From Psammoneis japonica (taxonomy: Eukaryota): DNA of 64,000 nt. The stretch spans positions 372,001-436,000 of the forward strand of contig QPGO01000013.1 of NCBI GenBank assembly GCA_008632985.1, in the 5' to 3' direction. The position numbers and the translations under genes are program-made. Every line of letters begins with the position of its first letter. Positions within the stretch are counted from its first letter, which is position 1. This document shows positions 3,001 through 33,789 of the stretch, in pieces. The notes under the pieces are model-generated. The model saw only the letters and a list, made by a program, of their open reading frames with translations. It was not told where the DNA came from and ran no database searches.

Positions 3001-6000
3001 TTTGTGTTGCACTCACAGGACATTGAAGGATTGTGACACTTGTTTGATGGGGCCATTGACAGCTGGGGGGCACTCACACACCAGTTGACTTGTGTGAAGC
3101 ATCTTCTCACATGCCTTTTTGCAGATTATCACAATGATTTGATTTGATTGAGTCACTCTCTTGCCTTGAAGATTGCCCTCCAGCATCTGATGATGTTCAA
3201 AATGAAATGGAGGCACTCAATGAAGGATGTGGTCTGTTTCATGAAGTGTCACAACATCGTTGTTTTGTCTGACAGGGTGTTGGATGGAACCCTCAACAAC
3301 CCTGGGGTTCAGGGCACTGGCTTGGCTTTCATTGTTCAACTGCCTTGTCTGACCAACCCACCACTGCAGCTGCCACTGGAGGAGCAGATGCACCAGTGGC
3401 CCGGCCATGGACATTCCCACCCACTGCACCTGCTCTTGACTTCCTGTTTTGTCTGCAGGAGGAAAGGGGGGGGGGGCAACAGCAACCTGCTTTCTGATGG
3501 ACCAATGGATTTCCCCAGAGACAAGAATGCAGATGAAGCCCAGGATGATGATGCCATGAAAACTGCAGACACAATGACAACACCAAAGACAATGACAATG
3601 ACAAGAAGGAGGATGGGAGCAATCATGCAGAAGCTGTTTGAGCAACATTTGAGCTGCAGTGCCAAGCACACAACACTTTGCAACTCACAAAACTGTGCTT
3701 TGGACAACAACAATGCCAAAGACAATGATTGCAACAAGGAGGACATGCCAAATCCTGCAGAAGCTGTTTCAGCGAAATTCAAACCACAATGCCAAAGGCA
3801 CGCAACAGGTTGCAACTTTTGCAACTGCTCTCAACTTGTGAAACAGCACCTTTTGCAGATTCCCACATTGATGCTTCTCAAACAACTTTCTTGGACATCT
3901 CTCTGAAATCTTGTGATGGCTCCATCCCATCCAGTGTTTTGTGCAGATCAACACAAACAACGAAGATCATGTCTGCCATTTCTGTTGTTTTGCACCAGCA
4001 GGTTGCTGACATCTCCAATTTGTGATGAAGAGATGAGGTTTCTCATTGCACTTTCTGTGAGCCTCATTTTGGCTGCATGCACCATTGGCAGATTCTTCTT
4101 TGTGCACCAAGCTGGGAAAAGATGATGTTGTTTGTTGCTGTTTTGCACCTTTTTGTTCACTCGGGCAAGGGCATGATGGTCTTTGCATGCATGCTTGCCT
4201 GCTGGCACAGCTTGTTCAAATGAGTCAAGCATGTGCCAACATGGGCTGCTCCATGAGGAAACAAACCAGCATGAACACAAGACATGGTTTTTGAAATTTC
4301 CAGCTGTGGCCATGGCATTCTTCTGTGTGTCAAATGCAGCAGCTCCTCTCTGTTGCTGCATTCAATGATGCCCCATCTGAAGCTTTGGAGGCTGCACTTG
4401 ATGTTGATTCACACAATGGCAGGACCATCAGTGCAGAGTGGCAGAAATTGTTTGTCGTGAGCCATTTTTGTTTGAGCTTGTGTGCATCAATCGCGACAGG
4501 CATTTTGACTTTGTTGATGCTTGTTTTGGCAAACTGATGTCACCCTCTCAGCCTCCAGAAATGGTGTGTCTTTGCAATGTTCCAGTGTCTTTGGACAAGT
4601 GTAGCCTCCCATGCTTGAAAAGGTCCAACTGCCGATGAAGCAGGAGTTTCAAATGCCTTCTTTGCGGCCAGCTGGGTTTGTTGTGACACACCTCAGATTT
4701 TGGGAGGAGATGGCAAATCCAACAATCTGCCAGCAGACCCACCAATGAATCTTTCCAGCAACAACATCACACAGGTTGACAGCACATGGAACACTGTGTG
4801 GTGGCATCAGCAGCAAGGAGACGAGTCGTCATTGCTGACCTTGGGAAAGCCACGTCCACAAAAATGTGGGAATGTGCTCGCAAATGGGTTTCAGTAATTT
4901 TTGGCACCTTTGAGTGCTTTTGGATCCCCTTGTCCTGTCTGGAAGGAGGGTGCATGGCTGGGTTGCTTTCTCCCTTTGTCATGGCAGTCAAATTGGACAC
5001 CTGGAACCTCTTTGAACTCAATTTTCTCATGTTTGGGTGTCCTGGAAGGCCTGTCAACCAGCATCAGCAAGCTCAATGGGACCCGCTTTGCCAAACAATG
5101 CACTCAAACAAATGCTGTCCTCCTGACACAAGGACTGTCAACCAGGAGGATGTGTTCAGTGCATGAAACCAGCCACAGTTCAAGCCATTCCTGCCACAGC
5201 TGTGCTGGAAGCATTGGCGAATGGTGTGCTTGATGCCAAAGCCAGTCCTGAAGACATCATGTGGAAGGTTGACAGGACAGCATGCAAGAGCCAAGATTGC
5301 TCCACTCTGGATGACAACATTTTAAATCTTCTCTGGCCATTGGTGCTGAAGATGAAACAAAAGCTGGCTGAATCAAAAAACTTGACAGACGAGTCCAATG
5401 TGAAGCACATCAAAGTCATGCTTTGTTTCAATGCTGGAAAAATGACAAATGAGCTGAGCACCCCCTTTGTCCAAGCCCACAGCAGGAACAAAACATCCCC
5501 AAGAACAACCCTTGTTGCAATGACAACAAGTGGGTTTGTTCTGTGCTGGTTGAGTTGACACTGACAACAACTCAAGTTGGGCATTTGCAAGACCAGATGA
5601 CAACAACATTTGCCTGCAACAGCAGCACTGCTGACATCCTCAGAAGTGTGCAGATTCTCAGTTGGCAATGACACAATCAAAGATGAAAATGATGGAGCAT
5701 TTGAGTTGCTGAGCAAATTGCAACCACAGTTGGCCACTTCTGCACACTTTGGTTGTGCTTGCATCTTTTGCTTCTCTGCTGTTGTTGCAGCACACAAGTG
5801 CACTCACTGTGGTGTGCATGTGGCATGGCAGTTTGTGCCAGCATTGTTGCGTTGGTGCACTTTGGCCAGAAAACTGTGGCCTCAAAACAGATTTTGCTTC
5901 AACTGTTTGTTTCTTGACAAGAACAGAACAAAAATTTTCTTGCAAAAACTGTCAGTGTAGAGGGCACTTCTGCAACACACTGGAGTTGTTGTTAGATTGT

Positions 6001-6891
6001 AAGCTCACAATGATCTTTCTTGCCCATTGCACAGCAACTCTGAAACCTCCCAGCACAACCAAACCTTCTTTGCACATGCATTTTGATGCCCCCCTTTGCT
6101 GTTTTCAGTGCATTCAAAGGGCCCTTTGATGCTGAAGTCCCAAAGGCAATGCCAGCAAGTCAAAGAAAGAAAGAATTGAAAATGAAATTTGAGCATTGGG
6201 TGCTTTGACAATGAGAGGTGAGCACAGAAGTGCAACAAAACCAGAAGCCTGGAAAGAAATGCACAACTCCAAAGGTGTCATTTTCTGTAAAGCAGCACAA
6301 AGAAGTTGTCCAAACTGCCTGGACAGGGTGCACAAAGGCATTGTCAAAATGCCACAACCCAGAAAATGTGTTGTTGCTGGGCGTGTCTTTGGAGAAAACC
6401 ATCCATTGTCACATTTGCCAGGAACAAAAGGGTGCAATGGCGCACATTTGCCTCCTGACCAGCGTGAGTTGATGACCACCAGATCATGCAATCCAAGTTG
6501 AGTTGTGCCACCCATTGCAGTTTCATGCAGTCAAAAGTCAGCAACTGGGCCAGTGCATCCACTGCCCAGTGTTTTGGACAAAGCAATGCATTCATTGTCC
6601 ATTGGTTGAAAAGCCACCCAATTTCTGACAGCACCTTTCAGAAAACTGCAACAAAGAATGTGCCTGCAATGGCAATTTGTCATGTTGAGGTCCAGATGGT
6701 CTTGTCTGCAACCTGTGTTCTTTGCTGGCTGCTTCAAAAGCATCTTTGGCAAAGCCTCACAAAAACAACCAAAAAGGCACTTGGATTTCCTCATTGTCTC
6801 AACAGAAGAGAAAACAAAGAAACGCACCATGATGCAACTTTGAGAAGTGCAACCCAGATTTAGAGAAGCAGTTGCCAAAGGGACCCACAAC

Positions 6892-6894
<3 letters not shown>

Positions 6895-6924
<30 letters not shown>
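6895..6924 (+). repeat. (CAA)10 microsatellite
   Basis: Ten consecutive CAA units read directly from the sequence. Confidence 0.95.
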
Positions 6925-9900
6925 GAGATGCTTTCCAATGCTTTTCTGAAGATGGTCAAGGAAGGTTTCTGCATGTGTGTGTCAAAAGGAACATTGTTGC
7001 ATCTGACCCCAGCTGTGCCATTTCTTCAATGCTTTTGAAAGCATGCCTTTCATTGCAACCAGGGCTGCAAGCAACAGCCTCAGATGCTCTTGACCAGAAT
7101 GACAGGTCTGGTCTGCAGCTTCATTCTCAAAGGGAGTTCTTGGCATTTTCTGGTCACTTTGTCTGTGGGGGGATGTGTGTGTTGCTGCTCAGAATTGTTT
7201 CTTACACTTGGCCTTGTCAAACAGCTTGGGCAGTTCTTTGAAGGCTGCACTGGGACATTTGCACATGTTGCAATCCCCAGCATTGCAAAAACAATCACAA
7301 CACCAGAACAACAAGGTGTTAGAGACTTTTTGGAGATCAAACAAGGCACGGATCAATTGCATTTGTGGAGACCCAAGTGCAGTGCATGAAGGAGCAGATG
7401 TCCCAAAAGGCTGGTCAAGCCAAGTGCTGCAAAATTCCCTGCAGCTTTCATGAGCAGCAGCAACTTCTCCATGATGCCATTCCTCTGCAGCAACAATGGC
7501 AGCCTTGAACTTGTGCTGGATGTCATTTTTTCCCACCAAATTGCAGCAATGCATTGGATTGTCACCAAGCCGTTGGGGCATGTCACAGCATTGATTTGTT
7601 CAAGATGTGTTGCTGGAGTGAGAGTTGCAATTGCAAGCCATGTCATCATGGCCTTTTGCATCCCCAATGATTGCGCACAAACAAAAATGAAGATGGACAA
7701 GGCCAAGAAAGGGAAGCACAATGGGAAACCAGTCCGCCTCTTAGAAACTTGCAGCAACTCAGTGAACATCTCCCAAAGGGCATTGTGGCAAAACTTTGCA
7801 CAGGTCTCCTGCCAAAGCTTTGATTGTGTCAGTCAGCAGCTCTTCTCTTGTCATTGCCAGTCTTTGGATGGGTGGAACCACTCCAAGTGCAGACCAAGGG
7901 AAGTGGTGACTTTGGTGGCACTTGTCACTGAGATTGCCAAAAAAGTCAGAAAAATGGGTTGAGCTTGCAGACAACCAATGAAGATGTTGCAGGACAAATG
8001 AAATGAGAGCCAGAGGGACACTCATTGCCAAGTTGTGAGAGAGGCAATTGGAGATCCTCCTTGGCTTGTTTTCACCAGATGCTGGTGTTCAGGGAATTGC
8101 ACACGCACTTGTTGGCTTGAGGACATCATTTCTCTTTGTGCAACCTTTGGCATGATTGCACAACTTTGGGATTGCAGAACACCCTTCTGACACAGTGCAC
8201 AAAGGAAAAATGATGAGCATGCATGGGGGGAACTCAGGTCCAATGTGGACAGCAGAGTGCATGGGCTCAGGGCCAACATGCTTGACATGCTTTGCTTTCA
8301 TGCATCTCACAGTGCAGTGGAGTGAGACAAACAGTTGCAGTCACAATCACGACTGCCCTTGGCTCATCTGGCTAAAGACACCAGACCCTTGTGTGAACCA
8401 TGGGGCAGATGATGCTTCTTCATCATGAGAGTCAAATCTTCTTCTGTGTTTTGCAAACAAGAGGTGGTGTCAAAAGTTGAGCTTCTCCCATCTCCCCTGA
8501 ATCAAGTGCTTCAAAATGGTGAAGACCACCATCATCTTTGTTGGTGCTGCTTGCATTGCTTTGCATGGAAGAGCCCCCAGGGAAGGACGCTGATCCAAAC
8601 AAGTGCATCATTAAAAAAGATGTCACCCCCCAAAGAATGAAAAAACTGATTTGCTCCACATTGTGCAAAAGTTGAGTGCAGGATTCAAAGTTAAAGCAAA
8701 AATCATTGCCAGGTTCATCACAGGTGCAGTGGCCATGATGAACAAATGAAGCATCCAAAGAGGATCAGATGGAAAAGAACAATTCAACAGTGTGACAGAA
8801 ACATCCAATTTAATCCAGAGAAGCCAATGCAATGGAAGTGCTCAAGGAGAGGCAGGTGCATTGTTTTGGGGCCAATTTGAGAAAAGGAAAAGTGCTGGGG
8901 ACACCGTAAAAAAAGCCAATGAAGGGCATGTTGATCATCATTGTCTGGCACACAACCAGGACACAGTGGATTGCAACAGGAGCAGGCCATCATTGTTAAA
9001 ACAAATGTGCCATTAACACAAACTCATTGGCAGCCAACAGAAATGAGTGCTGTGAGATGAAACAAAGAGATGGACAAAGCAGGAACATGCAAAACGGAGA
9101 TGCGCTCAGCTGTCAAATGGCCTGGCTCACAAAAAATCAATCAACCATGGACAAGATTAAAAAGAAAGCCACCAGTGTGCACCAATCTACAAGATTGTCT
9201 GTTGTCACAGCAACCATGACTGCTGTGTGACAAAAACAAAGACAGATTTGCACCATTGTTTAGAAGGTTGTTTGTGACACCAACTCAAGTCAATTGTTGA
9301 CAAATTGTGCAACCACATCATCACAAATGTGACCATTGTTGAGATCAAAAAGAACTCACAGGCATTTGTCTCTTGGGGGTGCTGACTTTGCTGTTGTTGT
9401 GACTGCATTGGTGTGGCAAAACATTTGACTTCTCACACATGATGCACACATCATGGGTCATGCAGAGTGTTGACAAATGCACAAACAATGAACAACTTCT
9501 GTGGCACTGCTGCACACCCTGAAGCAGCTCCAAAATTGCTGCTGACTTTTCAGCATTTTGACTCTACAACATCTCCACATTTTTGCACAGGTGTGTGTGT
9601 TTGAAGTCATGAAGCCAAAAAAGGCCACACAGTTGAGCTGGGTGCAGGCAACAAAGACAATGCATTGTTGCAAAAAAAGGAAATAATCTTGTTGTTGTGT
9701 GTGCTGCAATCTCTCAAAGCACCGCACTGTGCTGGTGATCAAAAACAGGGTTTGTCTGATGACAGCTTTGCTGGTCATCGCAGCACCAACAATGTTGTCA
9801 GCTGAGCAAGCTTGGTCTGATGACCCAAGTGCCTTCCAAGACCCCTTCACCATTGTGCAGATTTTTGGACTCTTCTTGGTGCCAACTGAAACTCCTTTGA

Positions 9901-9999
9901 AAGAGTTCGTTGTTGTCTCTTTGATGCTCTCAGGGCTGCAAAGTTGGCTGTGAGTGTTCATCCATTGACCATTGGGACATTCTTTTCCTTGTGTGTTGA

Positions 10000-10170
10000 A
10001 GCCAAGATTTGAGTTTCCAAAATCTTTCCTTTGCACCTGCTGCTGCTTCCTGACCCATCTTGGCAGCAACTTTGCATGCTGCATTGCCTCTCAGCACCTC
10101 TTGAGGTTGTCAGTTTCAAACCACAGCTCTGTTCTCAGTGGCACACAAAGTGGTGAAAGCCAGCTTGCAC
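10000..10170. repeat. Dispersed repeat, copy 1 (second copy at about 17195-17360)
   Basis: Shared core ttcctttgcacctgc..ctgcttcctgacccatcttggcagc.ac.ttgcatgctgc; minus-strand translations LPRWVRKQQQVQRKDFG and LPRWVRKQWQVQRKVFG. Confidence 0.85.
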
Positions 10171-10866
10171 ACCATGCTCCCAGCTTCTTTTTTTTGGATT
10201 TGGTTGCCCCTCAGTTGTGGGTTGTTGTTGCTTCTGCTTTTGGGTTGCTTGCTTCCCAAACATTTTGAGGCTGCCGCTTTGTTTGGATTCGCCACTTGGC
10301 CATGAGTCCTTTGTGTTCAGCCACAATGCAGCTGAATGCGGGGCAGAAAAGAATGTAATTCAAGGGCGGCGCATCTGTCCCATCTTTTGTGGGCACTTGT
10401 TGTTTCTCCAAGACACGCACTGGCGGGCCAGCAAGGCACTTGCACCAGTGCGTGTTACCTTCGGCAGGCAATTACTTCTGTGTGAATGCAGAGGTCACTC
10501 TCTACAATTTGCCGAGATGCGGAGGATATGAGAGCTCTCACAATGTGCAGTACATACCGCTTCGTTCTGTTGTGGCTTCCTTAACCAACAGTTTGTATCA
10601 CGGAATAAAAAGCTAAAGTCCAACACTTCAAAAATCAAACGTGGGTAGCACAAGAGGCAATTGCCTTAGATCCCATATTGTCGAGCTGCCTTTGTAACTT
10701 TTCCTCAGCAATTCACAGACTTGCTTTCCACATATAGGCTCAAGCAATTAGAAACACTAGAGGCTTCCTTAAAGGAAACCTATACGACCTCTACTGGTAG
10801 GCATGAGAACAGACGTCGCATCAGCATTAATAAATTTGTAGGCTGGCGATTTGGCCATTCTAAGTA

Positions 10867-11970
10867 TTAATCTTCTGTGTTCTCTAGCTGATCGATACAT
10901 GACTGCAACGACTCATCATTGCCACCTGTCTTCTGCTGATGCTTGAGAGCCTTGATTACGACGTCTTTATCTGCTTCCTTTATCTGTTTTGCGAGGTTCT
11001 CGAGCTCAACATCATCCAATGGTGGGCCCTTTGGGTCCGCATTTAAATGTATGTACGGAAAAATTGATTCATTGTGGAAAAGGGGGCCACCACCCGTGCA
11101 AGCATGTAACAAAATGACGCGCTCACCATTCCAAGGCGCAATATCGTCGGGTATGCCCTCATGCCAGATTCGATGCCTATCCGTCCAATAATCCCAGTCA
11201 CTATCAAAGTAAAAGGCCGTCCAATTCTCCATCTGAATGTTGCTGCCAATGCCTTGGACGTATGATGACATGAACTCCTCACCAACGGCCGTCTGTGCTA
11301 ATTGGAAGTTGTACGATAGTCCTGTTAAGGTAACTCGTTGGGCGAAGGTAGCGACGGACGATCCTTTCTGAGCGTCAACCAACACGAAGAGAACAGTTTC
11401 ATCAATGAGCTGTTTGAGGAATCCTCTAAGCATGCTTTTGGGAGACAGTTCATCAATGAGAGGTTTGGCTTGGGGATCATCGCGCAATCGCTTTAAGAGC
11501 GTGAGGTTGGTGCAGAAGAACACCATGAGTGGTGGACACCAACCATCCACTGTAGCGTCCACATCTTCGCCTTGTTTGAGACTGTCCTTGCGATGTTGCA
11601 GATCCCTCATCACACTGTTGAAGAGAGCTTGACAATGTTCCTCGCTGAGGAGCTTGTCGTCAACAGGAAACATGCTCGCACCACAAAGGCGCTCTGCAAC
11701 AGCTCCGCTTGTCCTACAAAGTTCCTGGGCCTCAGAGGTGCTTCCTGTATCGGAAGCGACCTGCAGCAGGGCGAGCGTCAAGGCTGCAACCGAAGAAATG
11801 GTCTCGCCATCTCCAATGGAGAGTGTCCTGGCGATTTCAAGAGCACGATCCTTGGCCAATTTTTGAGTCTCACGAAAGGTTGTCAAAGCCCCTTCGGCAT
11901 CTGCTTTTGACAAAGCGGAATGAGACTCCAGTAAGCGCTCCGTGATGGCCGATAAGTCTTCAGTCGGCAT
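10867..11970 (-). CDS. Hypothetical protein, 367 aa, intronless
   Basis: Long ORF with normal dinucleotide and amino-acid usage; ATG at 11970 (MPTEDLSAITE); helical N-terminal half; C-terminal motifs LSYNFQL and IWHEGIPDDIAPWNGERVILL. Confidence 0.85.
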   Translation of the reverse strand: MPTEDLSAITERLLESHSALSKADAEGALTTFRETQKLAKDRALEIARTLSIGDGETISSVAALTLALLQVASDTGSTSEAQELCRTSGAVAERLCGASMFPVDDKLLSEEHCQALFNSVMRDLQHRKDSLKQGEDVDATVDGWCPPLMVFFCTNLTLLKRLRDDPQAKPLIDELSPKSMLRGFLKQLIDETVLFVLVDAQKGSSVATFAQRVTLTGLSYNFQLAQTAVGEEFMSSYVQGIGSNIQMENWTAFYFDSDWDYWTDRHRIWHEGIPDDIAPWNGERVILLHACTGGGPLFHNESIFPYIHLNADPKGPPLDDVELENLAKQIKEADKDVVIKALKHQQKTGGNDESLQSCIDQLENTED

Positions 11971-12151
11971 GTTCGTTGAGAGTAGTGAGTTTATACGAGA
12001 CCTTTGAACAATTCGTAGCACGTTTTTGTTTAGCTACTAGTAGCTAGAGAGAGTTCGAGTAGTGAAGGCACAGCTGATTGAAACGCGGACTGTTCGCGAA
12101 CGATGATGATTCGCGTTTCGGGACGTGCCATGACTTACCGGTAGCCACGCA

Positions 12152-14281
12152 CTATTATCAATCGCGCGCAACCGTTCGAGCGAAAAAAAAGTTGAACGGC
12201 CCACGCGCGGGCGCAGAATTCTTTTTTCAATCTTGCATTTGAGGGCAAAATCTGCCTCCATGACGGTCATTTACCGTCTTTCGCCGCGACATGTCTCGTT
12301 CCACTAGGCTAATGGCCATAACCCTGTTTCGCTTGACGAACACGATAACATGATATCAAGAAAGGATGAATTAGACGACGAATCGAGTCAAAAATCTGAC
12401 TGAGAAGATTCCGCGGATCGCCGCGGTGGTGGTGCAATCCCAGCTGCTGCGAATGTGCAGCGATTGCCCGAAAGCCCTGCAGACTCCTCTGTTGCCAGCA
12501 GTGACGAAGGATCTCTTCAAGAAGTTATGCGCTGAGTAAATTGGTCATCGAGCCGCCTTGACAAATGCGACGACGAAGAGAACTGCGGCTGAATGGAATT
12601 TTGTCTGATCACAAAGCAGTTCCCATGGTTTCTCGCTGGTTCGAATTCAAATGACATGCCCCGCATTGTAAGTTGTTGATCGATTGTGTGTCTTGCATTG
12701 TTTCTTACAAAAACTCAACACTTGTTTTGTCACTCCTTTTTTGGCAAGGACACGCAACAGTGAACTCTCGCCAGCGGCTGCAACAGCATCCCCAATTTTT
12801 TGAGTTCTGTCATGGGAGGCAGTCAGTCTCATGCCATGCCGTCTCAGCCGCCACCGCCTCCGCCTCCAGCACAGCCAGTCCTTCCTCTACAGCAGGCTGG
12901 AGAGCCGTGCATGACAATGCCAGCAACAGACTGCACTGTTGCAACAGCACCACAGGGGGTGAAAATCGGGAACGAACCCACAGCAGGCCACCCCCATTTC
13001 CATCCCCCCCCCCACCTCTGCCACTGTTGCAGGAAGAGAGAGTCCTCCGGGCTGAAGCACATGCCGTGGTGGTGCTGGTGACATGGCACACTGTCACAAT
13101 TCGACAATGGGAGAAGCAAGCTGGGAGAGTCCGAAGCAGGCTTTTCATCCTGCTGTCCCGCATCCACCTGCAACTGCACTCTAGCTAGAGTGCATTTTAA
13201 AAATGGCAAAAGAGTGCAATGTGTTGACAATCACAGATGACAATGTCAGAGTTGACTCCACTGTGGCTGGACTTGGTGGTCACAGTGGCGGCAGGCAGCC
13301 AACAATGGCAGCTGCGTGGCAGGCCACCCGGTGCTCTCCCAAAAAGGCAGTCATCCAAATGGACTGACATGAAAGACACTCCACTGGACAATTCCACAGC
13401 AGTTCAATTGGGTTCATCTCAGGTGCCCGAGGTGGGAGCGTCAGAAGGCACACTCGAAAATGTTCCCACAACCACACCTCCAAGATGTCGTTGTCGCCTG
13501 CTCGGCACGTTCATCGGCGGCTTCGGGTTCATTCTGTCAATGCAAGAACGAGCAACCATTGAGCCACTGCCGGCATGGCTCCAACGTCAGCCGCCTCATT
13601 CATTTTGTTCTGGACGTGCCGCCACTCGACGACTCATCCGACGTCGTCGTGGTTGTGCTCAAGTTCCATCCAATGTCCACACCGACGTGATGCAGTCCAA
13701 ATGGGGTGCACAATGCTTCCGCATTTTGGATTCTATGTGTTCGTCAAGCGTGCATTGCAAATCACAGTTGACACGGTCTTTGCCGCACCATTTGCCTGTG
13801 CCACACATGTGGGATGGAACCATTGAAAATGATGTGTTTGGCTCGGCACCTGCTCGTACAAAAATCAGGAATGCAAGTCGTTGGTTCGCTGCAACAGCCA
13901 AACAGATTTTTACATGCCTCATCCATGTTGCACACGGCGAATGGATGAGATTGAGGTGAAGGCAAGCAGTGCAATGTTCGACCATGATGCACAATGCGCC
14001 GTGTCGATTCGCCCTTTTCAAGCGTGTGTTGAATGGATCAAAAAGCTTCCAGTGGATGCATTTGTTTGTTTGAAGCGCCTGTGGTGTTCTTCAGATCAAG
14101 TGCCAACAATGTTGCTTGGTTTATCGGCTTCAAACCATCTAAAAAAGCGAAAGAGACGGCAAATGACCGTCATGGAGGCAGATTTTGCCTTCCGATGCAC
14201 GCAAAATTGAAAAAAATTCTGCGCCCGCGTGGGCCGTTCAACTTTTTTTTCGCTCGAACGGTTGCGCGCGATAGACAATGC
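12152..14281 (-). mobile_element. Degenerate Tc1/IS630-like DNA transposon with ~130-bp terminal inverted repeats
   Basis: 12152-12284 is the reverse complement of 14147-14281 (gcgcgcaaccgttcgagcgaaaaaaaagttgaacggcccacgcg...). The interior encodes a DDE C-terminal motif. Both flanks read CA, compatible with a mutated TA target duplication (inference). Confidence 0.8.
13290..13490 (-). pseudogene. Tc1/IS630-type DDE transposase fragment
   Basis: WLWEHFRVCLLTLPPRAPEMNPIELLWN matches the LPPxSPELNPIExxW motif that carries the catalytic Glu. Confidence 0.75.
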
Positions 14282-15299
14282 CAAGCACACGCGCTTGCGG
14301 GGGCACGAATAATTTAGCACCACAAAAATGATGATGCTTTTAGTGAGAAGAAAATGGCATGTGTCCAGCGTCGTCACTCGGTTCAATCAAATCGGCAAGT
14401 TCGAAAGGCAGAGTGGATGTTTCGTGCTTGGCTCCCTCTGAACACGCCAACTCACATTTGAACTGTCATGCCTTGAGAGAATCACACTGGACAAGCGCGC
14501 CAGGCGACAGATTGACCAGTTTGTTGACAAGAGCAGAGATTGCATCATGAGTCTGAGAGTGTGAGCAGTCCAAGGACTGAAAGGGGTGGGGAGGAGCATG
14601 GCCACCACAGATGAATTGCCACAGAGCAATTGTGCATGCAATCATTGTGCCCCAACAGCAGGCAGGGACAACAACATGGAGCGGGCTTGCACTTGAGTCT
14701 GTGAACACCGTGCAGAGGAGCTGGCGAGCCACAGGAGACCCTCCCACAGCATGGTGCAGAGACAAAGAAGACAAGCATCTTCAAAAGATGCCATGGCCAC
14801 AGGTGTCAAGCCTCAGGGAACTGGCAGGACCAGTGCCGCCAGATTGGGCTTGGACATGGCATCGAAGAAGCACTCCCCATTGTGGGAGCTGCAGAGTCTG
14901 AAGTCAGAGCTGGTGTCAACAGGCATGGTCTGGAACAAAGCAATCACTGAAGTCATCCACATCTTCAGGCTTGACAGCCTCAACCACAATCTCAAGGTTG
15001 CTTTCTCTGAGATGCAGGAGCTGGCTTGCAGGAGATGTGTGCTGCAAATGCCGCAAGAGGAGATGGGGGTCTCGACTGCACCACAGCAATGGAGCCCAGT
15101 TCATGCCAGCTCTTTGCCATCAACAGGTGCATCCTTGGGCATGTCAGTCAGATCTGTGAGCAGTCTGGGTGGGTAGCCCAAGTGGGGTGCCTGAGTCTGT
15201 GATGTCGGTGGATGTGAAGTCTCCTGCTGCAGGCTGCTCTTGAAGAGTGCAGTGCTTTGGCAGCTCTCACACACATTGTCTGTTTTGTTTTGATTTGCA

Positions 15300-16300
15300 T
15301 GCATGCACCTCCCCAATTTTGGTGGGCTTGCAAGCACACTTTCCACAGAAATGGGTGGTCAAGTTGCGCTTGTTCTTGATGGGCTTGTTGCTGGGTGGGT
15401 GCAATCATGATGGGGCTCGTTGGTGTGAGCAACTCTCTGCAGGAGGTGGCGAGACAGCAGGAGCTGCCACTGGCATGTCCTTCTTGTTCTGTTGTTGCTG
15501 CTGACACTTTTCTTTCTAGCGCCTCTGTCACTCTGCATGCACAGGACATTTGGGATCAATGACTCAGTGGTCCATGGCTTTGCAGGAGTGGCAGGCACCC
15601 TTGACAATGTTCTTGAAAGCACCATTGTTCTGGGGGAGCTGCTTTGCAGACAGGCCAGACCAATTCTTGTCAGCAACATGGAACTGACATTGCTGTTGAA
15701 GGTGTGTGATGCATCATGCAGCAGTCCCCAGTTGAGCAGTTGGAGTTCTTGGCAAGTGCCTTGGGATTGCCAAGGTGGCACTTGTGCTCCATGAGTGAAG
15801 GCTTGTCCATCTTGGTGCATGTTTTGTGATTGAATGCCTCACATGACACATTTGTGCACTTCTTCAGGATGTCCGATCCAAGATTGATGGGCAGCACACA
15901 CCAGGCTTAGAGCAGCCTGGCAAGACAGAGAGTGCTTTGGCAGCCAACTCAGAAAAAATGTCCTCACCAGGACAGGCAGATGGCAACAGAGTTTCAAAAT
16001 CTTTTGTGGCTTGTGTGGCATCATGGATGGCAGATGCACTGCAAGAAGTGTTCAGTGCCATCGTCAAACAGACCTGACCAAGACGGTGTGCTCAAACAGA
16101 TCGTCATGATCAAGTTGGACCTTGATCTTCTCCCTGGGTCAATGGGAGATGAAAGACTTAATGACCAACCTTTACAGGGAGATGTCATTGTGCTTGCAAT
16201 TGTTGCAGGCAGGGAGCAGGTCCAAGAGAGAGCTTGGTGGGTTTGCAGTTGTCATCCAACAGTGACCCACCCATGCAGCACCCATGCTTGGGATGGAGAC
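15300..16300 (-). mobile_element. Copia (CoDi-like) gag remnant, hypermutated
   Basis: Minus-strand fragments TKDFETLLPSACPGEDI (YPGE[D/N]I with Y->C) and a zinc-knuckle-like CHSCKAMDH...KC; stops and frameshifts present. Confidence 0.55.
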
Positions 16301-17194
16301 CACTGGACTTTGGAGGAACAGGCCTGGGCAGAGGCATTGTTGTTGGCAGCAGCAGTGCCAGCAGCATTACAAGCAGCAGCCAGCGCCAGTTGCCAGGGTG
16401 CTGGATGACCCCTTTGGAGTTTCAGCAGCTGCCTTGGTGCTGGAAGACCCTTTTGGAGTTTTGGGAGCTCCTGCCATGGTTGACACACCTCACCAGACAG
16501 CTCAATGTGCAGGGCTTGGCAGGAAACATGTGCAGAATTTGAAACAAAATGTCAAAACAGAGGTTCTTGATGTTGCATCAATCGAAGACTGCTGCAGAAA
16601 CGCAACGATCAAACGGCGATGATGGCATCAGTGTGGGGTCACTCGAGGGGCAAGTCTTGGCTTGGCATGGACTCAGAGAGTTCAAAACAACTCAATCTGG
16701 GTTTGATGTTGCAGCATTCAAAAATGACGATTCATGACAATGGCATTTTCCCGACCATGGGTCACCTCCTTTGGCAGAAAATGTGAGCGGGAGAGCGAGA
16801 CTCAAACGCATGCAAGGCATCTCTTGAAATGACAAACAGCACATCTCTTTTTGAATTGACAAAGAATGATGACTTTCAAAACAAATGGACAATGACTGGT
16901 TGATGGTGACTGCCTTTGATGAGGATGCACTGGTTCGGTGCAGCTCTGGTGAAAAACATGCTGCACACTGTGCGCTTGGGCTTGATGACCAGTTGTTGCA
17001 CCAATGTGTGGCTGGTGACATCAAAGGAGCAAAAAGCTCAAGGTTGTAAACTAAAAACTGTTGTTGTTGCAAAAGCTGTTGACCAAAAATTATGACTGCA
17101 AATGTCGAGCAGAGATGTGGAGGCAGAATTTGAAGTTGGGCTGCATGCGACGAGAACACAACACTGGTCTTTGGCACATTGTTTTCCTTGTTGA

Positions 17195-17360
17195 AACTGA
17201 GACTTGAGTGACCAAAAACCTTCCTTTGCACCTGCCACTGCTTCCTGACCCATCTTGGCAGCGACATTGCATGCTGCCTCGCCCAGTGCCTCTTGAGGCC
17301 ATCAGTCTCAATCTAAGTCACTGTTCTCGTTGACATGAAAAGTGGTGAGAAGCTGACTCT
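17195..17360. repeat. Dispersed repeat, copy 2 (see 10000-10170)
   Basis: Direct similarity to 10000-10170. Confidence 0.85.
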
Positions 17361-17518
17361 CTCCAGTGTCGCGCTCCATGCTCAGCGTCTCAGCGTGCGC
17401 TCCGTTCATTTTTTTTGCATTTTTTTGCATTTCTGTCGCTCTGTCGCCTGTCGCCTGTCGTTCTTGCTATTCGACCTCGACACCCGCCCAAGCAAAAGTA
17501 AACAATCGAGCAACGACA

Positions 17519-18457
17519 ATGACTCGTTCCAAAGAAGCTCTTCTTCGTAGAGCGGAGAAGCGTGGTCGTTCTGTAGAAGAACAAAAAATGATCGATGGCA
17601 GCAAGAGACCACGCCGTGCGGAAAACTTCGATTGCTTGAAAGCACCGGGTCCAACCCGACAAAGCGAAAACACTACCAGTCCAACAAATAATGTCTCTAA
17701 AACGGAAGCATGCAATTCGAAACTTCCCCTCAATAGTGTTGTTTCCGCACACAAGACAAACGGCGTTGTTGCTTTTACTACAACAAACAAGCCACAGAAA
17801 TGGGCCAAACAAGCGTCGGCAGATCAAATCTCTGCAAACCAGACGCTTCGGAAACGATTTCTTGAAAACGACGACACGTTGACTGAGGAAGAAACAAAGC
17901 GTGCCAAGATTCTGTTGGCACGAGACGAACGTAAAATGAAAAAGAAACTACTAGAGGCAAAGAAGAAATCTAGTGTCGTTCGCAAGGCGCCAGCAAAGAC
18001 GATGCCTCCGACGACGAAAGCAAAACTCAAGGAACAAACCAAGAGAAACAAGGCACTTCGTAAACGAATTGCAAAGACAGGAGGCGAGGGAATGAGTAAA
18101 CAAGACATTGAACGATACCGTCAACTTGTGACGCGTGATGAGCGCAAAAAAGCCGAGCGAGAACGTGCCAACAAAACCGAGAAGACACAGGTGGAGACCG
18201 CCGACACCAACGGCAACTCTGATGAAAATAAAGGGGGAGAAATAGACAAGAGTGACAATACTGTAGCAGTCAAAGACCATCAAGAGATGAAAGAAACCGG
18301 ACGAGTGCTGACAAAAGAAGAACGCAAGGCGCTACGCAAACAATACAAAAGGACTGGAGGTGAAGGCATGAGCCAAGACGATGTCGACCTGGCAAAATTG
18401 TTGATGGAGCAAAGGAAGGAAAGAAAGGGCCGCCGAAAGACGGTAGAGAAGCTGTAA
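17519..18457 (+). CDS. Lys/Arg-rich protein with three internal ~35-aa repeats, 312 aa
   Basis: ATG at 17519 (MTRSKEALLRRAEKRGRS). Repeats: NQTLRKRFLENDDTLTEEETKRAKILLARDERK, NKALRKRIAKTGGEGMSKQDIERYRQLVTRDERK, RKALRKQYKRTGGEGMSQDDVDLAKLLMEQRKERK. Confidence 0.85.
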   Translation: MTRSKEALLRRAEKRGRSVEEQKMIDGSKRPRRAENFDCLKAPGPTRQSENTTSPTNNVSKTEACNSKLPLNSVVSAHKTNGVVAFTTTNKPQKWAKQASADQISANQTLRKRFLENDDTLTEEETKRAKILLARDERKMKKKLLEAKKKSSVVRKAPAKTMPPTTKAKLKEQTKRNKALRKRIAKTGGEGMSKQDIERYRQLVTRDERKKAERERANKTEKTQVETADTNGNSDENKGGEIDKSDNTVAVKDHQEMKETGRVLTKEERKALRKQYKRTGGEGMSQDDVDLAKLLMEQRKERKGRRKTVEKL

Positions 18458-18512
18458 AGAGACGTGAAGTAGAGTCGAACAAAAAACGGAATATCTATGT
18501 TTACGGGACCGG

Positions 18513-20096
18513 CTATCGGTAAATCTCCCAGTAAACATCATCTAACTGGTCACCGCACATGGATCTCAGTATAATCATCCACCATGTTCTTCCAAGAGCG
18601 CTTAAGACTTCCAATCCTGGATGGACCATGTGCTTTCCAATTGAATTTTCAATATTTATCTCTCGATTGTCGGGACGAGCCAATGTCATCCAGTACGCAT
18701 CCATGACGTGAATTGTGTCTTGGTATTCCTTCAAGACGTCAAACGCAATGCTGTTGAAGTGCGCCACCATGTTGGGTGACATGGAGAAGGCTTGCTTAAT
18801 GTGTGGAGGCCAACTAAACCCGAAATTGCCGTATCGAAGCCAGCCAGCTGTTGTCGACTGAAACACTTTCAATTCTGCCGGATAGTCCGCCATGTATTGA
18901 ACAAGCTGTGCAAAGAGCTTTCGATACTCGACCGAGCACGACAGTTCTGTATCGCTTTGGTTCAAGACGTCATTCCGGGTAATACTGTATTTTTCACTGC
19001 ACAGTTGTGCCACGTCGTGCAATCCAGTGTTGAAAATAACAAAACGGCGCTCGTCGGTAAAGTTCTCCTTAATGGCATCGAGTTCGGCGGTAACATTGCT
19101 CATCATGACGTGAATTCCTCCACTTGTAGAAATGCGAGTTGATCTAATATCAAGAGAGCCTTCTAGCAACGACTGCTTGAATTGAAGCTGTTGCAAAAGA
19201 CTGACGGAATCTCCAACGAATATAACATGCACCGATTGATTCTTGTGATCGTTGCGGCACTGGCCAACGAGCTCGTGAAACTCATCGGTACCCAGCGAGC
19301 GTGGTGGTAGCAAGAAGCAATCATTGGGCACATAGTCCATCATTATCCCCAAGGAATTCTTGCTTGACTGGTAGCCCCGAAGGGACACCTTTTCGTTCGT
19401 GTTGTTGAAGCCGAGCTCGTGCTGTCGATTCGAAACCTTGTCCGTCACCACCCATCTCCGCTTGCCATAGGCGGAGTTACTGTCTGTCTCAACAAGTTGA
19501 TTCAACAAGCACAGCTTGTGGCTGGTCATTTCATCGACTCTTGATACCTTTGAACTTTCTTGCACTGTGAGTTGAATTGGAAACCCAGGAACGTTGTATC
19601 CTTCATATGCTGGGCTTTCCGGCACCATCGGATACGAATCGAAGTCTGGAGAATACGACGACACCAAAACCACCTCAACCGTGTAATGCCCAGGATCCAT
19701 TGGCAGAATAACGATAGTGTACGTTCCATCATGATTATCCTCGACCTGGCCGGTAATCACAGCGGGTCCGTATGCACGAACGTAGAAGTGCGCACCGCCG
19801 TTTTTGCACTTTGCGTGATTGCAAACGACGACAAGGGTCGAAGGCCTATCAACTTGACCCATCAATGGAGCTTTGTAAATCTTAAAATTTCCAGCCAAGG
19901 TTGATTCGGGTCTGCTCCAACCCGTGTATCCAGGCAGTTCGCCGGGCACCAACGAAAGGGACGAATCGGCATTCCCTCCCAGTGCTTCCTTGACGGTCGA
20001 TCGCTCCGGGATACTGTACATGGTCGAAACCACATTTTGATAGACCGCAAACCCCGAGAGGAAGGTCAAAAGGATAACTAGCTTTTGCATCAACAT
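18513..20096 (-). CDS. Secreted or type II membrane protein with filamin/Ig-like domain and SGNH (NXPE/PC-esterase-like) domain
   Basis: 527-aa ORF; hydrophobic N-terminus; Ig-like segment GGAHFYVRAYGPAVITGQVEDNHDGTYT; SGNH blocks FVGDS, FNTGLHD and a C-terminal HMVHP. Confidence 0.85.
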   Translation of the reverse strand: MLMQKLVILLTFLSGFAVYQNVVSTMYSIPERSTVKEALGGNADSSLSLVPGELPGYTGWSRPESTLAGNFKIYKAPLMGQVDRPSTLVVVCNHAKCKNGGAHFYVRAYGPAVITGQVEDNHDGTYTIVILPMDPGHYTVEVVLVSSYSPDFDSYPMVPESPAYEGYNVPGFPIQLTVQESSKVSRVDEMTSHKLCLLNQLVETDSNSAYGKRRWVVTDKVSNRQHELGFNNTNEKVSLRGYQSSKNSLGIMMDYVPNDCFLLPPRSLGTDEFHELVGQCRNDHKNQSVHVIFVGDSVSLLQQLQFKQSLLEGSLDIRSTRISTSGGIHVMMSNVTAELDAIKENFTDERRFVIFNTGLHDVAQLCSEKYSITRNDVLNQSDTELSCSVEYRKLFAQLVQYMADYPAELKVFQSTTAGWLRYGNFGFSWPPHIKQAFSMSPNMVAHFNSIAFDVLKEYQDTIHVMDAYWMTLARPDNREINIENSIGKHMVHPGLEVLSALGRTWWMIILRSMCGDQLDDVYWEIYR

Positions 20097-21444
20097 TCTG
20101 GCGTTTTTATGATGTCTTCAAGATGCTCTCGATGCTCGAGCCATTTTGAAAAAAGTGAGGGTGGTTCAACGACACATTTTATGTTGCTTTCATCAACAAG
20201 AACAAAACATTATTTCCCATTATATTCATTAATATATACTAGGATAATCAATGTTTCTATTTATTTTATGTAGATTTCTACCCACGCAGCTACAGTAGTA
20301 CCTACCGCGCGATGCGGCAGCGCGGCTCACTGCTCGCTCCACTGCGACGACGACGATCTCAGATCGATCGATCGGATCGAGATCGAATCCTACCGGTATC
20401 CATATCCTAGTGCCTAGGAACTACGTATCCTATCTGCTCCGCCTTATTCCGATCGCTTGTCCACTTCATTACATCACCTTATTCATTTTAACTCTGCATT
20501 TGCTGTCCGAACAGACACCAACTTGGACCCGAGTTCTTTTGAAGTTTGAAAAGGAACGCACATTGGTTCTCCTGCTTTTCTCATTGCATTGAAATGACAT
20601 GAGAGAGAATTCCTCGAAAAGTGAATCCATTCATAGATGTGTCTCAAGTAGAGAGGCATCTTTATGAATTGCTTGTATGAAGTGGGCCTTTGAATCAGAC
20701 AAGTGCGGAGCATCAACGCCGCATGCTCTCATCATTGCCTTGAAACGACATGCGACGGAACTCATCAATGTCTGGATGTTTAAAACTCCCATTTTTCGAT
20801 TTATTAATTGATTTTACAGCCGAATTGCAACGAGCTCGATGCTCGCGCCTACGGGCGCTATGACTGCACAAGTAAAAGTAGTGTGCAGAATGGAAAGAAA
20901 GCATGGGGTTGAAAAATGTGAGGGCTAAAAATTTCGATTAAATGTTCATATTCAGGGCCTTATGCTATAGACCATATTCTCAATCTGATTCACTTATAAA
21001 GTTCATTCTCGCCCGTTCCCCGAGCTAACCGAAGCAGCATCCATCAAAAAGGGCTGTTTGCCTGCGTTGAACGACTTTTAGAGAAGTCATCTCTCGGCTA
21101 AGACTGTCCTAGCCGGGAGTGTCCAGAATCCAAAGGCTGCCTTTTGAATTGGCAACAGCGCGCACTCGTGTTGTTTCCGAGGAATTGTTTCTCCTTCAAG
21201 TTTGCTCGTGCAGGAAGTTGGATTGGAGCAAGTTGAATTCAAGAGTAGCTCTACTAGCTAGACAAGAAAAGACTGTAGTTGCACTCGTTTTGGTTCATTT
21301 ATTTTTATTGTTTTGCAAGTAGTATAGTATGAGATGATCGTGTGACAAAAACATGAACGAGATGCAAAATTATAGTGTTGCAGTTGTGATGCGACCGTCG
21401 AGGACCGATCATTAAAAAAAAAAGAGCAAATAGTTGGAAGAGAA

Positions 21445-25182: not shown

Positions 25183-26082
25183 TCACACTCCTGGAACAAA
25201 TCTGTCAGGTCGCTTCCTTTTCCTACCGGCATATTTGTAACCAAAGAGATCCGGCTTTTCACAAAGCAAGGAGTAACAAATGCCAACTCTGGACAAATCG
25301 GTACTCCTCTCTCCGACCTTGGCCAACACATGGGCCCAGAATGCCGGATGAATGTCATCACATGCCAAAAGTTGTCGCCCATGAGCTTCCATCAAGACAG
25401 AGGTCACGGCTTGATGACCCAGCATGATCGCAATATCCAATGGCTTGTTTCCGAGCTCCGTTTTTGAACTCAAATCAGCTCCATAGTCGAAAAGCAGCTT
25501 TGCCAAGTTCTCGTCATTCCCTACTAGGTGCAATGCTGATAAAGAGTCATTGTTGGTCTCGTTAACACCAGCTCCGTTCTCCAATAATATTTGTGTCGTG
25601 TCTAGGTGTCCTCGAAGTGTAGCAGAATGAAGCGGTAAATTGCCTCCATCCTCTGACTTTATATTTACCTCAGCACCATTTTGTAACAAGAACAGACACG
25701 TTTCGTCATCTCCTTCCCAAGCGGCTAAATGTAAAGGCGCAAAACCAGCGTAGTTTTTCCCATCAACGTCAGCTCCATTCGACAAGAGAATTCGTGCTAC
25801 AGAATAATGAGAGCGTTTGCACGCAAAGTCGAAGAGGGCGAAACCTTCAATTCTGTCTGTCACTCTTGCTCCTGCATCTATCAACAGCTGTGCTTTGAGC
25901 TCTCGGTCGGTTATGGTAGTACAAAAAATGATGTAAACGAGTGGTGTCACAACTCCATCACTTTCTCCTGGGGCAGTGACGGTCACCTCAGCATTTGGGT
26001 TCGCTCCCAGACGAAGAACCCCGCGAACATCTTGTGTAGTGCCATGTCCAATAGCCCCGAGAAGTTCGATATTCAAATCCAT
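25183..26082 (-). CDS. Ankyrin-repeat protein, 299 aa
   Basis: Ankyrin repeats GFAPLHLAAWEG, GNLPLHSATLRGH, GNKPLDIAIMLGH; basic C-terminal RKRKRP; ATG at 26082 chosen as the likely start. Confidence 0.9.
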   Translation of the reverse strand: MDLNIELLGAIGHGTTQDVRGVLRLGANPNAEVTVTAPGESDGVVTPLVYIIFCTTITDRELKAQLLIDAGARVTDRIEGFALFDFACKRSHYSVARILLSNGADVDGKNYAGFAPLHLAAWEGDDETCLFLLQNGAEVNIKSEDGGNLPLHSATLRGHLDTTQILLENGAGVNETNNDSLSALHLVGNDENLAKLLFDYGADLSSKTELGNKPLDIAIMLGHQAVTSVLMEAHGRQLLACDDIHPAFWAHVLAKVGERSTDLSRVGICYSLLCEKPDLFGYKYAGRKRKRPDRFVPGV

Positions 26083-33770: not shown

Positions 33771-33789
33771 GATGGTGCATGCACACCAC

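Follow-up and report, generated by a model that had tools for sequence, protein, structure and literature searches.

To our knowledge, the point-mutational processes that inactivate mobile DNA (RIP, methyl-CpG decay and APOBEC editing) are essentially all forms of cytosine deamination. APOBEC3 converts C to U on minus-strand cDNA before integration. As a deaminase-driven hypermutation of mobile elements it bears a likeness to the diatom locus described here, and it differs in being strand-biased and confined to retroelements, with the same changes expected in both LTRs. RIP of ascomycete fungi, as outlined in PMC2621366 and PMC7882544, is a C-to-T change, mainly at CpA, that creates TpA and AT-rich isochores. 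It shares with our locus post-insertion transitions in mobile or repeated DNA, a dinucleotide signature, the destruction of coding capacity, sharp block edges with some spill-over into the flanks, and the escape of short repeats. In contrast to RIP, TpA is here destroyed by A:T-to-G:C changes, with G+C content unchanged and no strand clustering.

Methyl-CpG decay of silenced vertebrate and plant transposons resembles the CpG arm of the present pattern, which is age-graded and strand-symmetric and in which residual CG is still polymorphic. TpCpG hypermutation of basidiomycete transposons, as sketched in PMC3318451, finds a parallel in the modest depletion of T-CG among surviving CG sites. However, both processes leave TpA alone, whereas here TpA goes first and more completely. 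ADAR, and in fungi TAD2/TAD3, carry out A-to-I editing with a strong preference for U/T before the edited A, as outlined in PMC11156358, and this A-to-G preference is exactly a TpA-to-TpG signature. Those enzymes act on RNA, whereas a cut-and-paste DNA transposon, post-integration LTR divergence and both strands are involved here. In a related algal supergroup, the transposons of dinoflagellates are enriched in 5-hydroxymethyluracil (5hmU), which a TET/JBP homologue produces and which has a repressive effect on these elements (summarised in PMC11572971), and an older report of a TA/TC preference for 5hmU is quoted in PMC11071213. Such a transposon-enriched thymine modification is a possible root of T-to-C change at TpA, although the relevant passages of PMC11572971 and PMC11071213 describe no mutational consequence. 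A search of the open-access literature in PMC and bioRxiv, which could miss a genome paper in a subscription journal, returned no report of TpA-to-TpG/CpA mutation of transposons in diatoms or others.

The whole data set is one window, that is, the entire 64-kb stretch of DNA analysed. Its depleted transposon blocks (35,454 bases) have a TA o/e of 0.05, a CG o/e of 0.16 and a CA/TG value of 1.86 at a G+C of 0.44-0.51, like genes, and thus do not carry the C-to-T change at CpA with raised TpA and A+T that marks RIP. The pooled genic reference (19,454 bases) gave 0.58, 1.01 and 1.15 for the same three measures, and a class depleted in TA only (6,484 bases) gave 0.10, 0.61 and 1.63. The remaining 12 dinucleotides are nearly unaltered, with o/e differences of at most 0.20 (largest for GC and GA), and (TG)n/(CA)n tracts make up just 148 of 35,455 bases. 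Within the window TA content looks bimodal, since 3 of 128 segments of 500 bases are intermediate, all three of them genic. Depleted DNA (~42 kb) yielded just two weak pol matches in Pfam, and its density of long spurious ORFs is doubled, TAA and TAG being removed.

Two younger elements, a Tc1/mariner-like transposon and a nested LTR element, are TA-poor while keeping CG (TA o/e 0.06-0.10, CG 0.6-0.8). Older blocks have lost both dinucleotides. The right end of the first of these (9972-10160) is homologous to 17171-17353, a homology of which just 35 residues align at the protein level. Two islands of normal composition break up the blocks at 44566-56000. Scans of the window for tRNA genes and Rfam families, meant to explain them, found none of either, and both islands proved to be MITEs, with a TA o/e of 0.96 and a CG o/e of 1.51 at 47941-48338, and 0.61 and 1.44 at 52228-52632.

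Table 1. Features of the window, with strand where assigned and the evidence or composition recorded for each
Feature	Coordinates	Strand	Evidence or composition
Old doubly depleted block	1-10160		TA 33 (o/e 0.04), CG 49 (0.09), CA/TG 1.85
Putative Tc1/mariner-like DNA transposon	12155-14278	-	Inverted repeats, weak DDE_3, flanks TA/TG
Degenerate transposase remnant, TA erased, CG largely kept	13441-14100	-	Dinucleotide counts, broken ORF pieces
Old doubly depleted block with CG-retaining rim (16583-17353)	14501-17353		TA o/e 0.06, CG 0.20
Genic reference, normal dinucleotides	17400-31400		Pfam: filamin-repeat, FHA, ankyrin, kinase; diatom pyrenoid-shell genes
Outer, older LTR element with Ty3/gypsy-type pol remnants	33393-45463	+	LTR-like pair 33393-33751 / 45075-45463, 74% identical
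Inner, younger LTR element nested in the older one	39729-44560	+	LTRs 39729-39913, 44374-44560
Doubly depleted blocks (44566-47935, 48350-52225, 52640-56000)	44566-56000		TA o/e 0.03-0.04, CG 0.13-0.26, CA/TG 1.9-2.05
Unmutated MITE inside old depleted block	47949-48336		24-base terminal inverted repeats, G-run flanks
Unmutated MITE inside old depleted block	52235-52627		TTAA on either side
Doubly depleted block	58650-62650		TA o/e 0.06, CG 0.19

An exact recount of 13441-13740 gave 23 CG (o/e 1.08) and 1 TA (0.06), and that of 40021-40320 gave 13 CG (0.89) and 1 TA (0.04), both matching the counts of the first-pass annotation. Over the whole of 13441-14100 there are 3 TA (o/e 0.08), 40 CG (0.94), 70 CA and 68 TG. 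At the genic TA o/e of 0.58, 23.1 TA would be expected (Poisson P(<=3) = 2.2e-7). Minus-strand ORF pieces in this stretch contain no Tyr and many Cys and His, and are interrupted by stops and frameshifts; the stretch is probably what remains of the transposase of a putative Tc1/mariner-like transposon present in several copies. The Tc1-like label is suggested by a sub-threshold match to PF13358 DDE_3 (13283-13510, minus strand; E=0.0015, score 18.8 bits where the cut-off is 28.6, profile positions 105-127 only), by terminal inverted repeats of 125 bases (12155-12279 and 14154-14278, arms 91-93% complementary), and by flanks reading TA at the left (12153-12154) and TG at the right (14279-14280). 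Such flanks would fit a TA target duplication of which one copy has since been converted. Outside the inverted repeats, 8 of the adjoining 10 bases agree, as would suit a longer duplication; a MULE or hAT reading drawn from this match was set aside on the DDE_3 remnant and the TA/TG flanks, and may still hold.

The inverted-repeat differences reported in the first pass are real: where the left repeat has two TA, the right repeat, on the depleted side, has TG at the corresponding positions. One further difference is an A/T transversion and no TA conversion. The accompanying statement that CpG is retained holds in relative terms only. The transposase remnant has a CG o/e of 0.78-0.94 and the inner LTR element one of 0.59, compared with 1.4-1.7 for the unmutated MITEs and the element's own left end, a shortfall indicating that some CG has probably gone already. 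That left end, 271 bases long, keeps TA (o/e 0.44), and the remainder stands at 0.06-0.17. The part at 12425-13250 is intermediate for TA (0.17).

The k-mer depth across the transposon is 230-410, compared with ~65 on either side, and contigs are interrupted at both of its ends; it is a multi-copy element with about 4-6 genomic copies. Another genomic copy has TA where the window has TG at 13269. A protein search found no homologues of the 243-aa plus-strand ORF, and the 143-aa minus-strand ORF, compared with 1.84 billion representatives, gave one weak repetitive match (E=1e-4). The 76-aa DDE_3 piece had no match among longer proteins, and when metagenome contigs were scanned twice for exact patterns from the core of the inverted repeats, neither scan gave a match. 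Because an unmutated family consensus was not recovered in these homologue searches, how much TA and CG the ancestor of 13441-14100 contained is inferred.

The inner LTR element displays the hallmarks of an LTR retrotransposon: an intact 5-base target duplication (AGGAG, 39724-39728 and 44561-44565), LTRs of 185 and 187 bases with TG..CA termini that are identical at 167 of 186 positions, and a purine run immediately before the 3' LTR. It has lost TA (o/e 0.10) and kept half of its CG. Pfam domains, and with them gag-pol capacity, were absent from every ORF of at least 100 aa, so that the element is either non-autonomous or mutated past recognition. The outer element has lost both dinucleotides (TA o/e 0.05, CG 0.15), and its LTRs show 18 TG/CA swaps between them. 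Pfam recognised RT_RNaseH at 36277-36618 (5.6e-9) and, below the cut-off, rve at 37087-37452 (9.3e-5). To look for Tyr-to-Cys/His changes at conserved positions, the RNase H and integrase remnants were compared with PDB sequences, and neither had a match.

Repeat pairs show when and how TA was lost. Among 2,230 aligned dinucleotide columns in 13 pairs, TG and CA are swapped at the same dinucleotide 82 times, any other class of double difference reaches at most 8, and TA/CG doubles number zero. These swaps between duplicates and LTR pairs indicate that TA loss is a DNA-level mutation occurring after insertion. The inner LTR pair, identical at insertion, carries 7 swaps, with 2 of 98 non-target columns differing. 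One TA site is kept in both copies and one in a single copy; for CG these numbers are 3 and 2. We estimate a per-copy conversion of ~0.9 for TA and ~0.25 for CG in this pair. Counts are small in each LTR pair, and the divergence of this one depends on 2 substitutions. Single TA/TG differences could arise from new G-to-A changes at the abundant TG, and polarised evidence is therefore restricted to the swaps and the target duplication.

Decay of CG as the only origin of the swaps was rejected when three low-divergence pairs were pooled (G=15.1, Monte-Carlo P=0.0007), although the swap counts would also fit a heterogeneous model in which some CG sites decay fast and others slowly. With non-target divergence K at 0.020, 0.024 and 0.042, CG kept in both copies or in one numbered 3/2, 3/0 and 4/5, and in seven between-element pairs with K >0.1 it was 0-1 in both and 0-4 in one. 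Two old duplications within the inner element still keep CG at 3/6 and 5/7 (both/one). CA and TG counts are about equal per block, and strand runs of a processive, RIP- or APOBEC-like kind were found in none of nine depleted blocks (z -0.5 to +1.9), which implies that the three-in-a-row CA-versus-TG arrangement of the inner LTR is not general. The elements hit include a DNA transposon, the divergence of the LTRs postdates integration, and the two strands are affected equally, so the change was made in DNA and not in RNA.

The first-pass annotation had proposed that TpA is lost by a process distinct from CpG loss and running ahead of it, and all tests run within the 64-kb window agree, so that the proposal is supported. 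The L-shaped trajectory that it had predicted appears in the 500-base segments: none of 43 with a TA o/e of at least 0.2 has a CG o/e below 0.5, and 21 of 85 with TA below 0.2 keep CG at 0.3 or more. At all seven block edges the TA-poor zone outreaches the CG-poor zone, by 80-460 bases (2.1 kb in the Tc1-like element); along the rim of the 14501-17353 block, CG returns at 16583 and TA at 17047. Flanking bases matter strongly for TA. R-T-A-Y sites are the best targets and Y-T-A-R sites the worst, surviving ATAT, ATAC and GTAT number zero, and TTAA is 6.3-fold enriched. For CG the dependence is weak, TCGA, TCGT and TCGG being modestly depleted among surviving sites. The elements form a series: 1) unmutated MITEs; 2) young elements, with the flagged stretch in this class, from which TA is gone and in which CG is partly kept; and 3) old elements that have lost both.

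We consider it likely that TpA in transposons is converted to TpG/CpA in DNA after insertion, in a manner confined to transposons and several-fold faster than CpG decay; this judgement concerns the phenomenon and leaves the chemistry aside. Conversion proceeds site by site and symmetrically on the two strands, is limited to transposon blocks whose edges are sharp to within 100-200 bases, and saturates at ~90-97% of sites. CpG-to-TpG/CpA decay accompanies it at a several-fold slower pace. The A:T-to-G:C changes at TpA and the G:C-to-A:T changes at CpG cancel, leaving G+C near 47%. The CpG arm may be ordinary 5-methylcytosine deamination in methylated transposons, for the CpG-to-TpG/CpA change is strand-symmetric and age-graded as methyl-CpG decay is, methylation itself being presumed. 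The TpA arm would be a separate A:T-to-G:C mutator activity restricted to transposons or heterochromatin. For the unmutated left end and the MITEs only ad hoc explanations can be offered, such as a nearby promoter, a recent origin or small size.

For the chemistry our tentative preference is non-processive deamination of adenine after T, on either strand, which would yield hypoxanthine read as G. Its neighbour preference is that of the known RNA-acting adenosine deaminases. Against it, the strand clustering typical of a processive deaminase was not seen in the nine depleted blocks, and we know of no natural DNA adenine deaminase. The content of the window points to no enzyme for TpA conversion. 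We give even chances to the wider proposal that this diatom lineage has an undescribed A:T-to-G:C mutator, linked to genome defence or heterochromatin and acting at transposon TpA, be it a natural adenine deaminase working on DNA or a miscoding, transposon-specific modification of T or A, which erases every Tyr, TAA and TAG codon within ~1% neutral divergence and leaves G+C unchanged.

If true, the TpA process would demand a chemistry other than cytosine deamination, by one of these two routes, and would mean that genome defence by mutation had been invented independently a second time, in one of the major groups of algae. With TpA loss offset by methyl-CpG decay and G+C unchanged, it would have escaped RIP-style composition scans, and it would be invisible to scans based on G+C or RIP indices. 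Transposons become unrecognisable to homology search, and the doubled long spurious ORFs can corrupt gene prediction. The ordered series from unmutated to TA-less to doubly depleted elements offers a built-in clock with which the rates and targets of both arms can be tested genome-wide.

A miscoding mark at transposon TpA is a less likely route than deamination, and we regard it as rather unlikely. In such a scheme an oxidised thymine (5-hydroxymethyl- or 5-formyluracil, made by a TET/JBP dioxygenase) or N6-methyladenine would cause slow, continuous T-to-C or A-to-G change by mispairing or misrepair, as 5-methylcytosine gives C-to-T. 5-formyluracil miscodes as C. The statistics resemble those of methyl-CpG decay, with site independence, strand symmetry, a palindromic target and no runs; the pattern is domain-limited with tapering rims; and the modest rate that would suffice, estimated from the inner LTR pair at ~100-250 times background, is compatible with such a mark, for which the dinoflagellates, another SAR lineage, provide a precedent in their transposon-specific thymine mark. 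The ranking of R-T-A-Y over Y-T-A-R might stem from an enzyme that recognises the base preceding T. However, nothing in the window bears on modification, we know of no such T/A modification in diatoms, and the apparently bimodal TA content is easier to reconcile with a rapid process than with gradual decay, the intermediate part of the Tc1-like element being an exception.

Instead of two processes, one RIP-like, repeat-triggered machine might act in bursts, for example at a sexual phase, with TA as its better and CG as its poorer substrate. Both conversions do share end products and blocks, TA loss is almost all-or-none, and the short MITEs (~400 bases) escape as short repeats do from RIP. In addition, many diatoms encode DNMT4, a relative of the fungal RIP factor RID whose function is given as unknown in the account of PMC9998398. 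A single machine with two efficiencies nevertheless appears doubtful to us: TA depends strongly on its flanking bases and CG weakly, strand-coordinated runs are missing, 271 bases of a multi-copy element are untouched, residual CG is still polymorphic (among the differences listed) in old single-copy blocks that now have no repeat partner, and a cytosine methyltransferase fold offers no A:T-to-G:C route.

Modified TA and CG bases in repeats might have been miscalled and left unpolished, and the pattern is indeed limited to repeat-derived DNA, the hardest to polish. We compared the window with accurate-read contigs of 31-letter words (depth ~65) from a public run, probably of the same sample as the assembly. 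They reproduce 1-6881 with 2 differences, 7474-12190 with 1 and 14252-18472 with 4, and one contig covers depleted and normal DNA together. The block at 1-10160 is at single-copy depth in them, and depleted blocks, being single-copy at 31-letter words, are polishable. Error-prone or strand-discordant calls would interrupt contigs at each site, whereas these exact-word contigs keep a uniform depth over 4-14 kb, continue from depleted DNA into genes and show 1-4 differences. An artefact of sequencing or assembly is thus very improbable, even though the sole run containing the stretch probably comes from the sample used for the assembly and has no recorded library type. The public runs listed include none of RNA that contains the stretch. 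Among the 40 listed of 174 contig-versus-window differences, 13 lie below 18000; 7 of these are outside the multi-copy element, and all 7 interconvert CG or TA with TG/CA. The conversion process is apparently still active.

That the families simply arrived TA-poor is largely refuted and hardly credible, since LTRs identical at insertion now show TG/CA swaps, the state is common to unrelated element classes and absent from the MITEs and from one end of the same element, a Tyr-free transposase frame is no working protein, and TA stands against TG both in the target duplication and, through the paralogue, at 13269, although no family's unmutated consensus was recovered in protein and metagenome-contig searches and CG loss alone would explain the CA/TG excess of the inner LTR element only from an ancestral CG o/e of at least ~1.6. 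In the genic reference, the best homologue of the pyrenoid-shell genes was 60-67% identical in a protein search.

Over the whole window, the observed/expected (o/e) ratio is 0.23 for TA, 0.50 for CG and 1.6 for CA/TG. Positions 13441-14100, which a first-pass annotation had described as stripped of TA with CG retained, hold 3 TA (o/e 0.08) and 40 CG (o/e 0.94), and 23 TA are expected in these 660 bases at the window's genic o/e of 0.58 (P(<=3) = 2e-7). The counts given there for 13441-13740 (1 TA, 23 CG) and 40021-40320 (1 TA, 13 CG) are exact. The same pattern runs through the whole window, and this stretch is a small part of it. A 100-base map reveals three composition states of equal G+C with borders sharp to 100-200 bases, between which the o/e values of the remaining twelve dinucleotides shift by at most 0.20, and TG/CA microsatellite-like tracts are negligible (148 of 35,455 bases). 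TAT and TAC trinucleotides together fall from 22 per kb to 0.65 per kb in depleted DNA, so its translations lack Tyr and abound in Cys and His. Because TAA and TAG are lost, stop-to-stop ORFs of at least 100 aa reach 35-39 per 10 kb there, versus 18.5 in genic DNA, and gene callers would be misled by such sequence. The organism is diatom-like, and the best homologues of its pyrenoid-shell gene are 60-67% identical and bear pennate-diatom names where named. Dinucleotide content is normal in this gene and in the kinase, ankyrin, FHA and filamin-repeat genes that neighbour it.

Composition states and located features of the window
Feature	Position or extent	Strand	Details
Doubly depleted state	~35 kb blocks		o/e TA 0.05, CG 0.16, CA/TG 1.86
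TA-only depleted state	~6.5 kb		o/e TA 0.10, CG 0.61, CA/TG 1.63
Normal genic state	~19.5 kb		o/e TA 0.58, CG 1.01, CA/TG 1.15
Putative Tc1-like element	12155-14278 (2,124 bases)		125-base terminal inverted repeats
Pyrenoid-shell gene (diatom family), intact	28581-29699	+	PF25192, 1.9e-59
Outer LTR element	33393-45463		
Inner LTR element	39729-44560		
MITE	47949-48336		normal TA, high CG; 24-base inverted repeats, G-run flanks
MITE	52235-52627		normal TA, high CG; TTAA on each side

Four kinds of evidence in this window support the proposal that TA loss is separable from CG loss: 1) TA o/e is below 0.2 in 85 of 128 windows of 500 bases, 21 of which keep a CG o/e of at least 0.3, and none of the 43 windows with TA o/e of at least 0.2 has CG below 0.5, which is the L-shaped relation that had been predicted; 2) across repeat pairs, CG retention drops as divergence rises at non-target columns (those outside pyrimidine-purine, YpR, steps), with TA gone in all pairs; 3) TA depletion outreaches CG depletion towards genes by 80-460 bases at all seven block edges, and by 2.1 kb in the Tc1-like element; and 4) the two losses depend differently on flanking bases. 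Among surviving TAs in the pooled depleted blocks, TTAA is enriched 6.3-fold and CTAA/TTAG 3.3-fold, and none lies in ATAT or ATAC/GTAT, which points to R-T-A-Y as the most and Y-T-A-R as the least favoured target, although some surviving sites may be newly created. A multiplicative flank model fits the TA loss, with propensity by the base preceding T in the order A>G>C>T. The flank dependence of CG spans less than 4-fold, T-CG contexts being modestly depleted among survivors. The retention of CG holds relative to TA but not in absolute terms, since unmutated transposon DNA has a CG o/e of 1.4-1.7; by composition, the TA-only class may already be short of a third to half of its CG.

Aligning all 13 repeat pairs found by blastn in depleted DNA gave 2,230 dinucleotide columns, with small counts for each pair in this one 64-kb window. 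They contain 82 swaps, in which one copy has TG and the other CA, compared with at most 8 of any other class of adjacent double difference and no TA-versus-CG doubles. A swap can arise only from an ancestral TA or CG that was converted independently in the two copies, which demonstrates hypermutability of YpR palindromes after duplication. The LTRs of the inner element, which were identical at insertion, differ at 2 of 98 non-target columns and show 7 swaps; one TA site is kept in both copies and one in a single copy, and three CG sites are kept in both and two in one. The resulting ratio for CG of kept in both, kept in one and swapped (3:2:7) means that the swaps cannot all come from CG converting at a single rate. 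When the counts of the three pairs of low divergence were pooled (10:7:13), a model in which CG alone converts at one rate was rejected (G=15.1, Monte-Carlo P=0.0007), so a faster class is needed, for which TA, near-absent from these elements, is the obvious candidate. As a rough estimate from these alignments, each copy at ~1% neutral divergence would have converted about 0.9 of its TA sites and 0.25 of its CG sites; TA would then change at several times the CG rate and at two orders of magnitude above the background rate.

Polarised single differences in the Tc1-like element, which contains 13441-14100, agree with this. Its presumed target duplication is TA on one side and TG on the other (left and right, respectively), two TAs of its inverted repeats are TG on the depleted side, and another genomic copy shows TA against TG in the window at 13269, and CA against TG in the window at 12779-12780. 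Other single TA/TG differences were not relied on because new G-to-A changes at the abundant TG/CA could create them. The element is multi-copy, as indicated by a k-mer depth 4-6x that of its flanks in a public DNA run, and by run contigs that break at its ends or join it to other flanks. The Tc1-like label is plausible given the inverted repeats, the TA/TG flanks and a broken minus-strand transposase remnant, but falls short of proof, the DDE_3 match being sub-threshold (E=0.0015). Homology searches recovered no unmutated ancestor of the family.

The process acts on DNA, because a cut-and-paste element was hit, the divergence between LTRs postdates their integration, and each block holds TG and CA in about equal numbers. 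It is non-processive, since TG/CA order is random along nine depleted blocks (runs-test z -0.5 to +1.9). Contigs assembled from exact 31-letter words of the run have an even depth of ~65; they cross depleted DNA for 4-14 kb and continue into genes, differing from the window at 1-4 positions. A base-calling artefact is therefore unlikely, although the run probably derives from the assembly's own sample. Among 40 listed differences out of 174 between window and contigs, 13 lie below 18000, and all 7 of these outside the multi-copy element interconvert CG or TA with TG/CA (6 at CG, 1 at TA; positions 92, 5851, 10182, 14296, 15896, 16607 and 16752). This suggests either that the process, or at least its CG arm, is recent or still running, or that these are differences between the two haplotypes.

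We regard the process as a form of transposon-directed point mutation. Like RIP, it mutates transposons to death and leaves a dinucleotide signature; it departs from the feature that defines RIP, the creation of TpA, in that it destroys TpA, and does so without A+T enrichment. No description of TpA-to-TpG/CpA mutation of transposons was found in the open-access full-text literature, although the species genome paper may have one. The CG arm would be methyl-CpG deamination, whose behaviour it matches. For the TA arm, our tentative proposal is that T-preceded adenine would be deaminated on either strand; we know of no natural DNA-acting adenine deaminase. The chemistry of the process has a real chance of being categorically new. 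A 5'-U/T preference is common to A-to-I deaminases (PMC11156358), and this is exactly the neighbour needed. The main rival, a transposon-specific miscoding mark on T or A, seems less likely; its precedent lies in 5hmU on dinoflagellate transposons (PMC11572971) and an old report of TA/TC preference, as quoted in PMC11071213. A single RIP-like machine with two efficiencies for TA and CG is more doubtful still. The fungal RIP factor RID has a diatom relative, DNMT4, to which no function has been assigned (PMC9998398), but DNMT4 offers no A:T-to-G:C route.

The process is limited to domains; two MITEs have escaped it, as has the multi-copy element at its promoter-proximal end. The left 271 bases of this element (12155-12424) keep TA at a normal level (o/e 0.44) and CG at a very high one (1.74), compared with a TA o/e of 0.06-0.17 in the rest, and contigs of other copies part from the window at 12424. 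As this end adjoins the start of a minus-strand ORF (10867-12033), an active promoter may shield it from TA loss. Outside the element, 12143-12152 and 14281-14290 match at 8 of 10 bases, either by chance or as a target duplication longer than TA. The MITEs, normal-composition islands of ~390 bases each within old depleted blocks, either inserted very recently or are too short for targeting.

The annotation's second example, 40021-40320, does sit in a bona fide LTR element. Its LTRs of 185 and 187 bases have TG..CA ends, the AGGAG target duplication is intact, and a purine tract precedes the 3' LTR; no recognisable gag or pol domain was found within it, and it may be non-autonomous. It also carries old internal duplications, 74-75% identical (43305-43628 / 43658-43988 and 41694-41860 / 43111-43277). 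The older element around it has LTR-like ends 74% identical and weak RNase H and integrase matches. Elsewhere, a single N at 49113 lies directly between direct repeats (48800-48920 / 49114-49243, 73% identical), and is possibly an assembly join within a tandem repeat.
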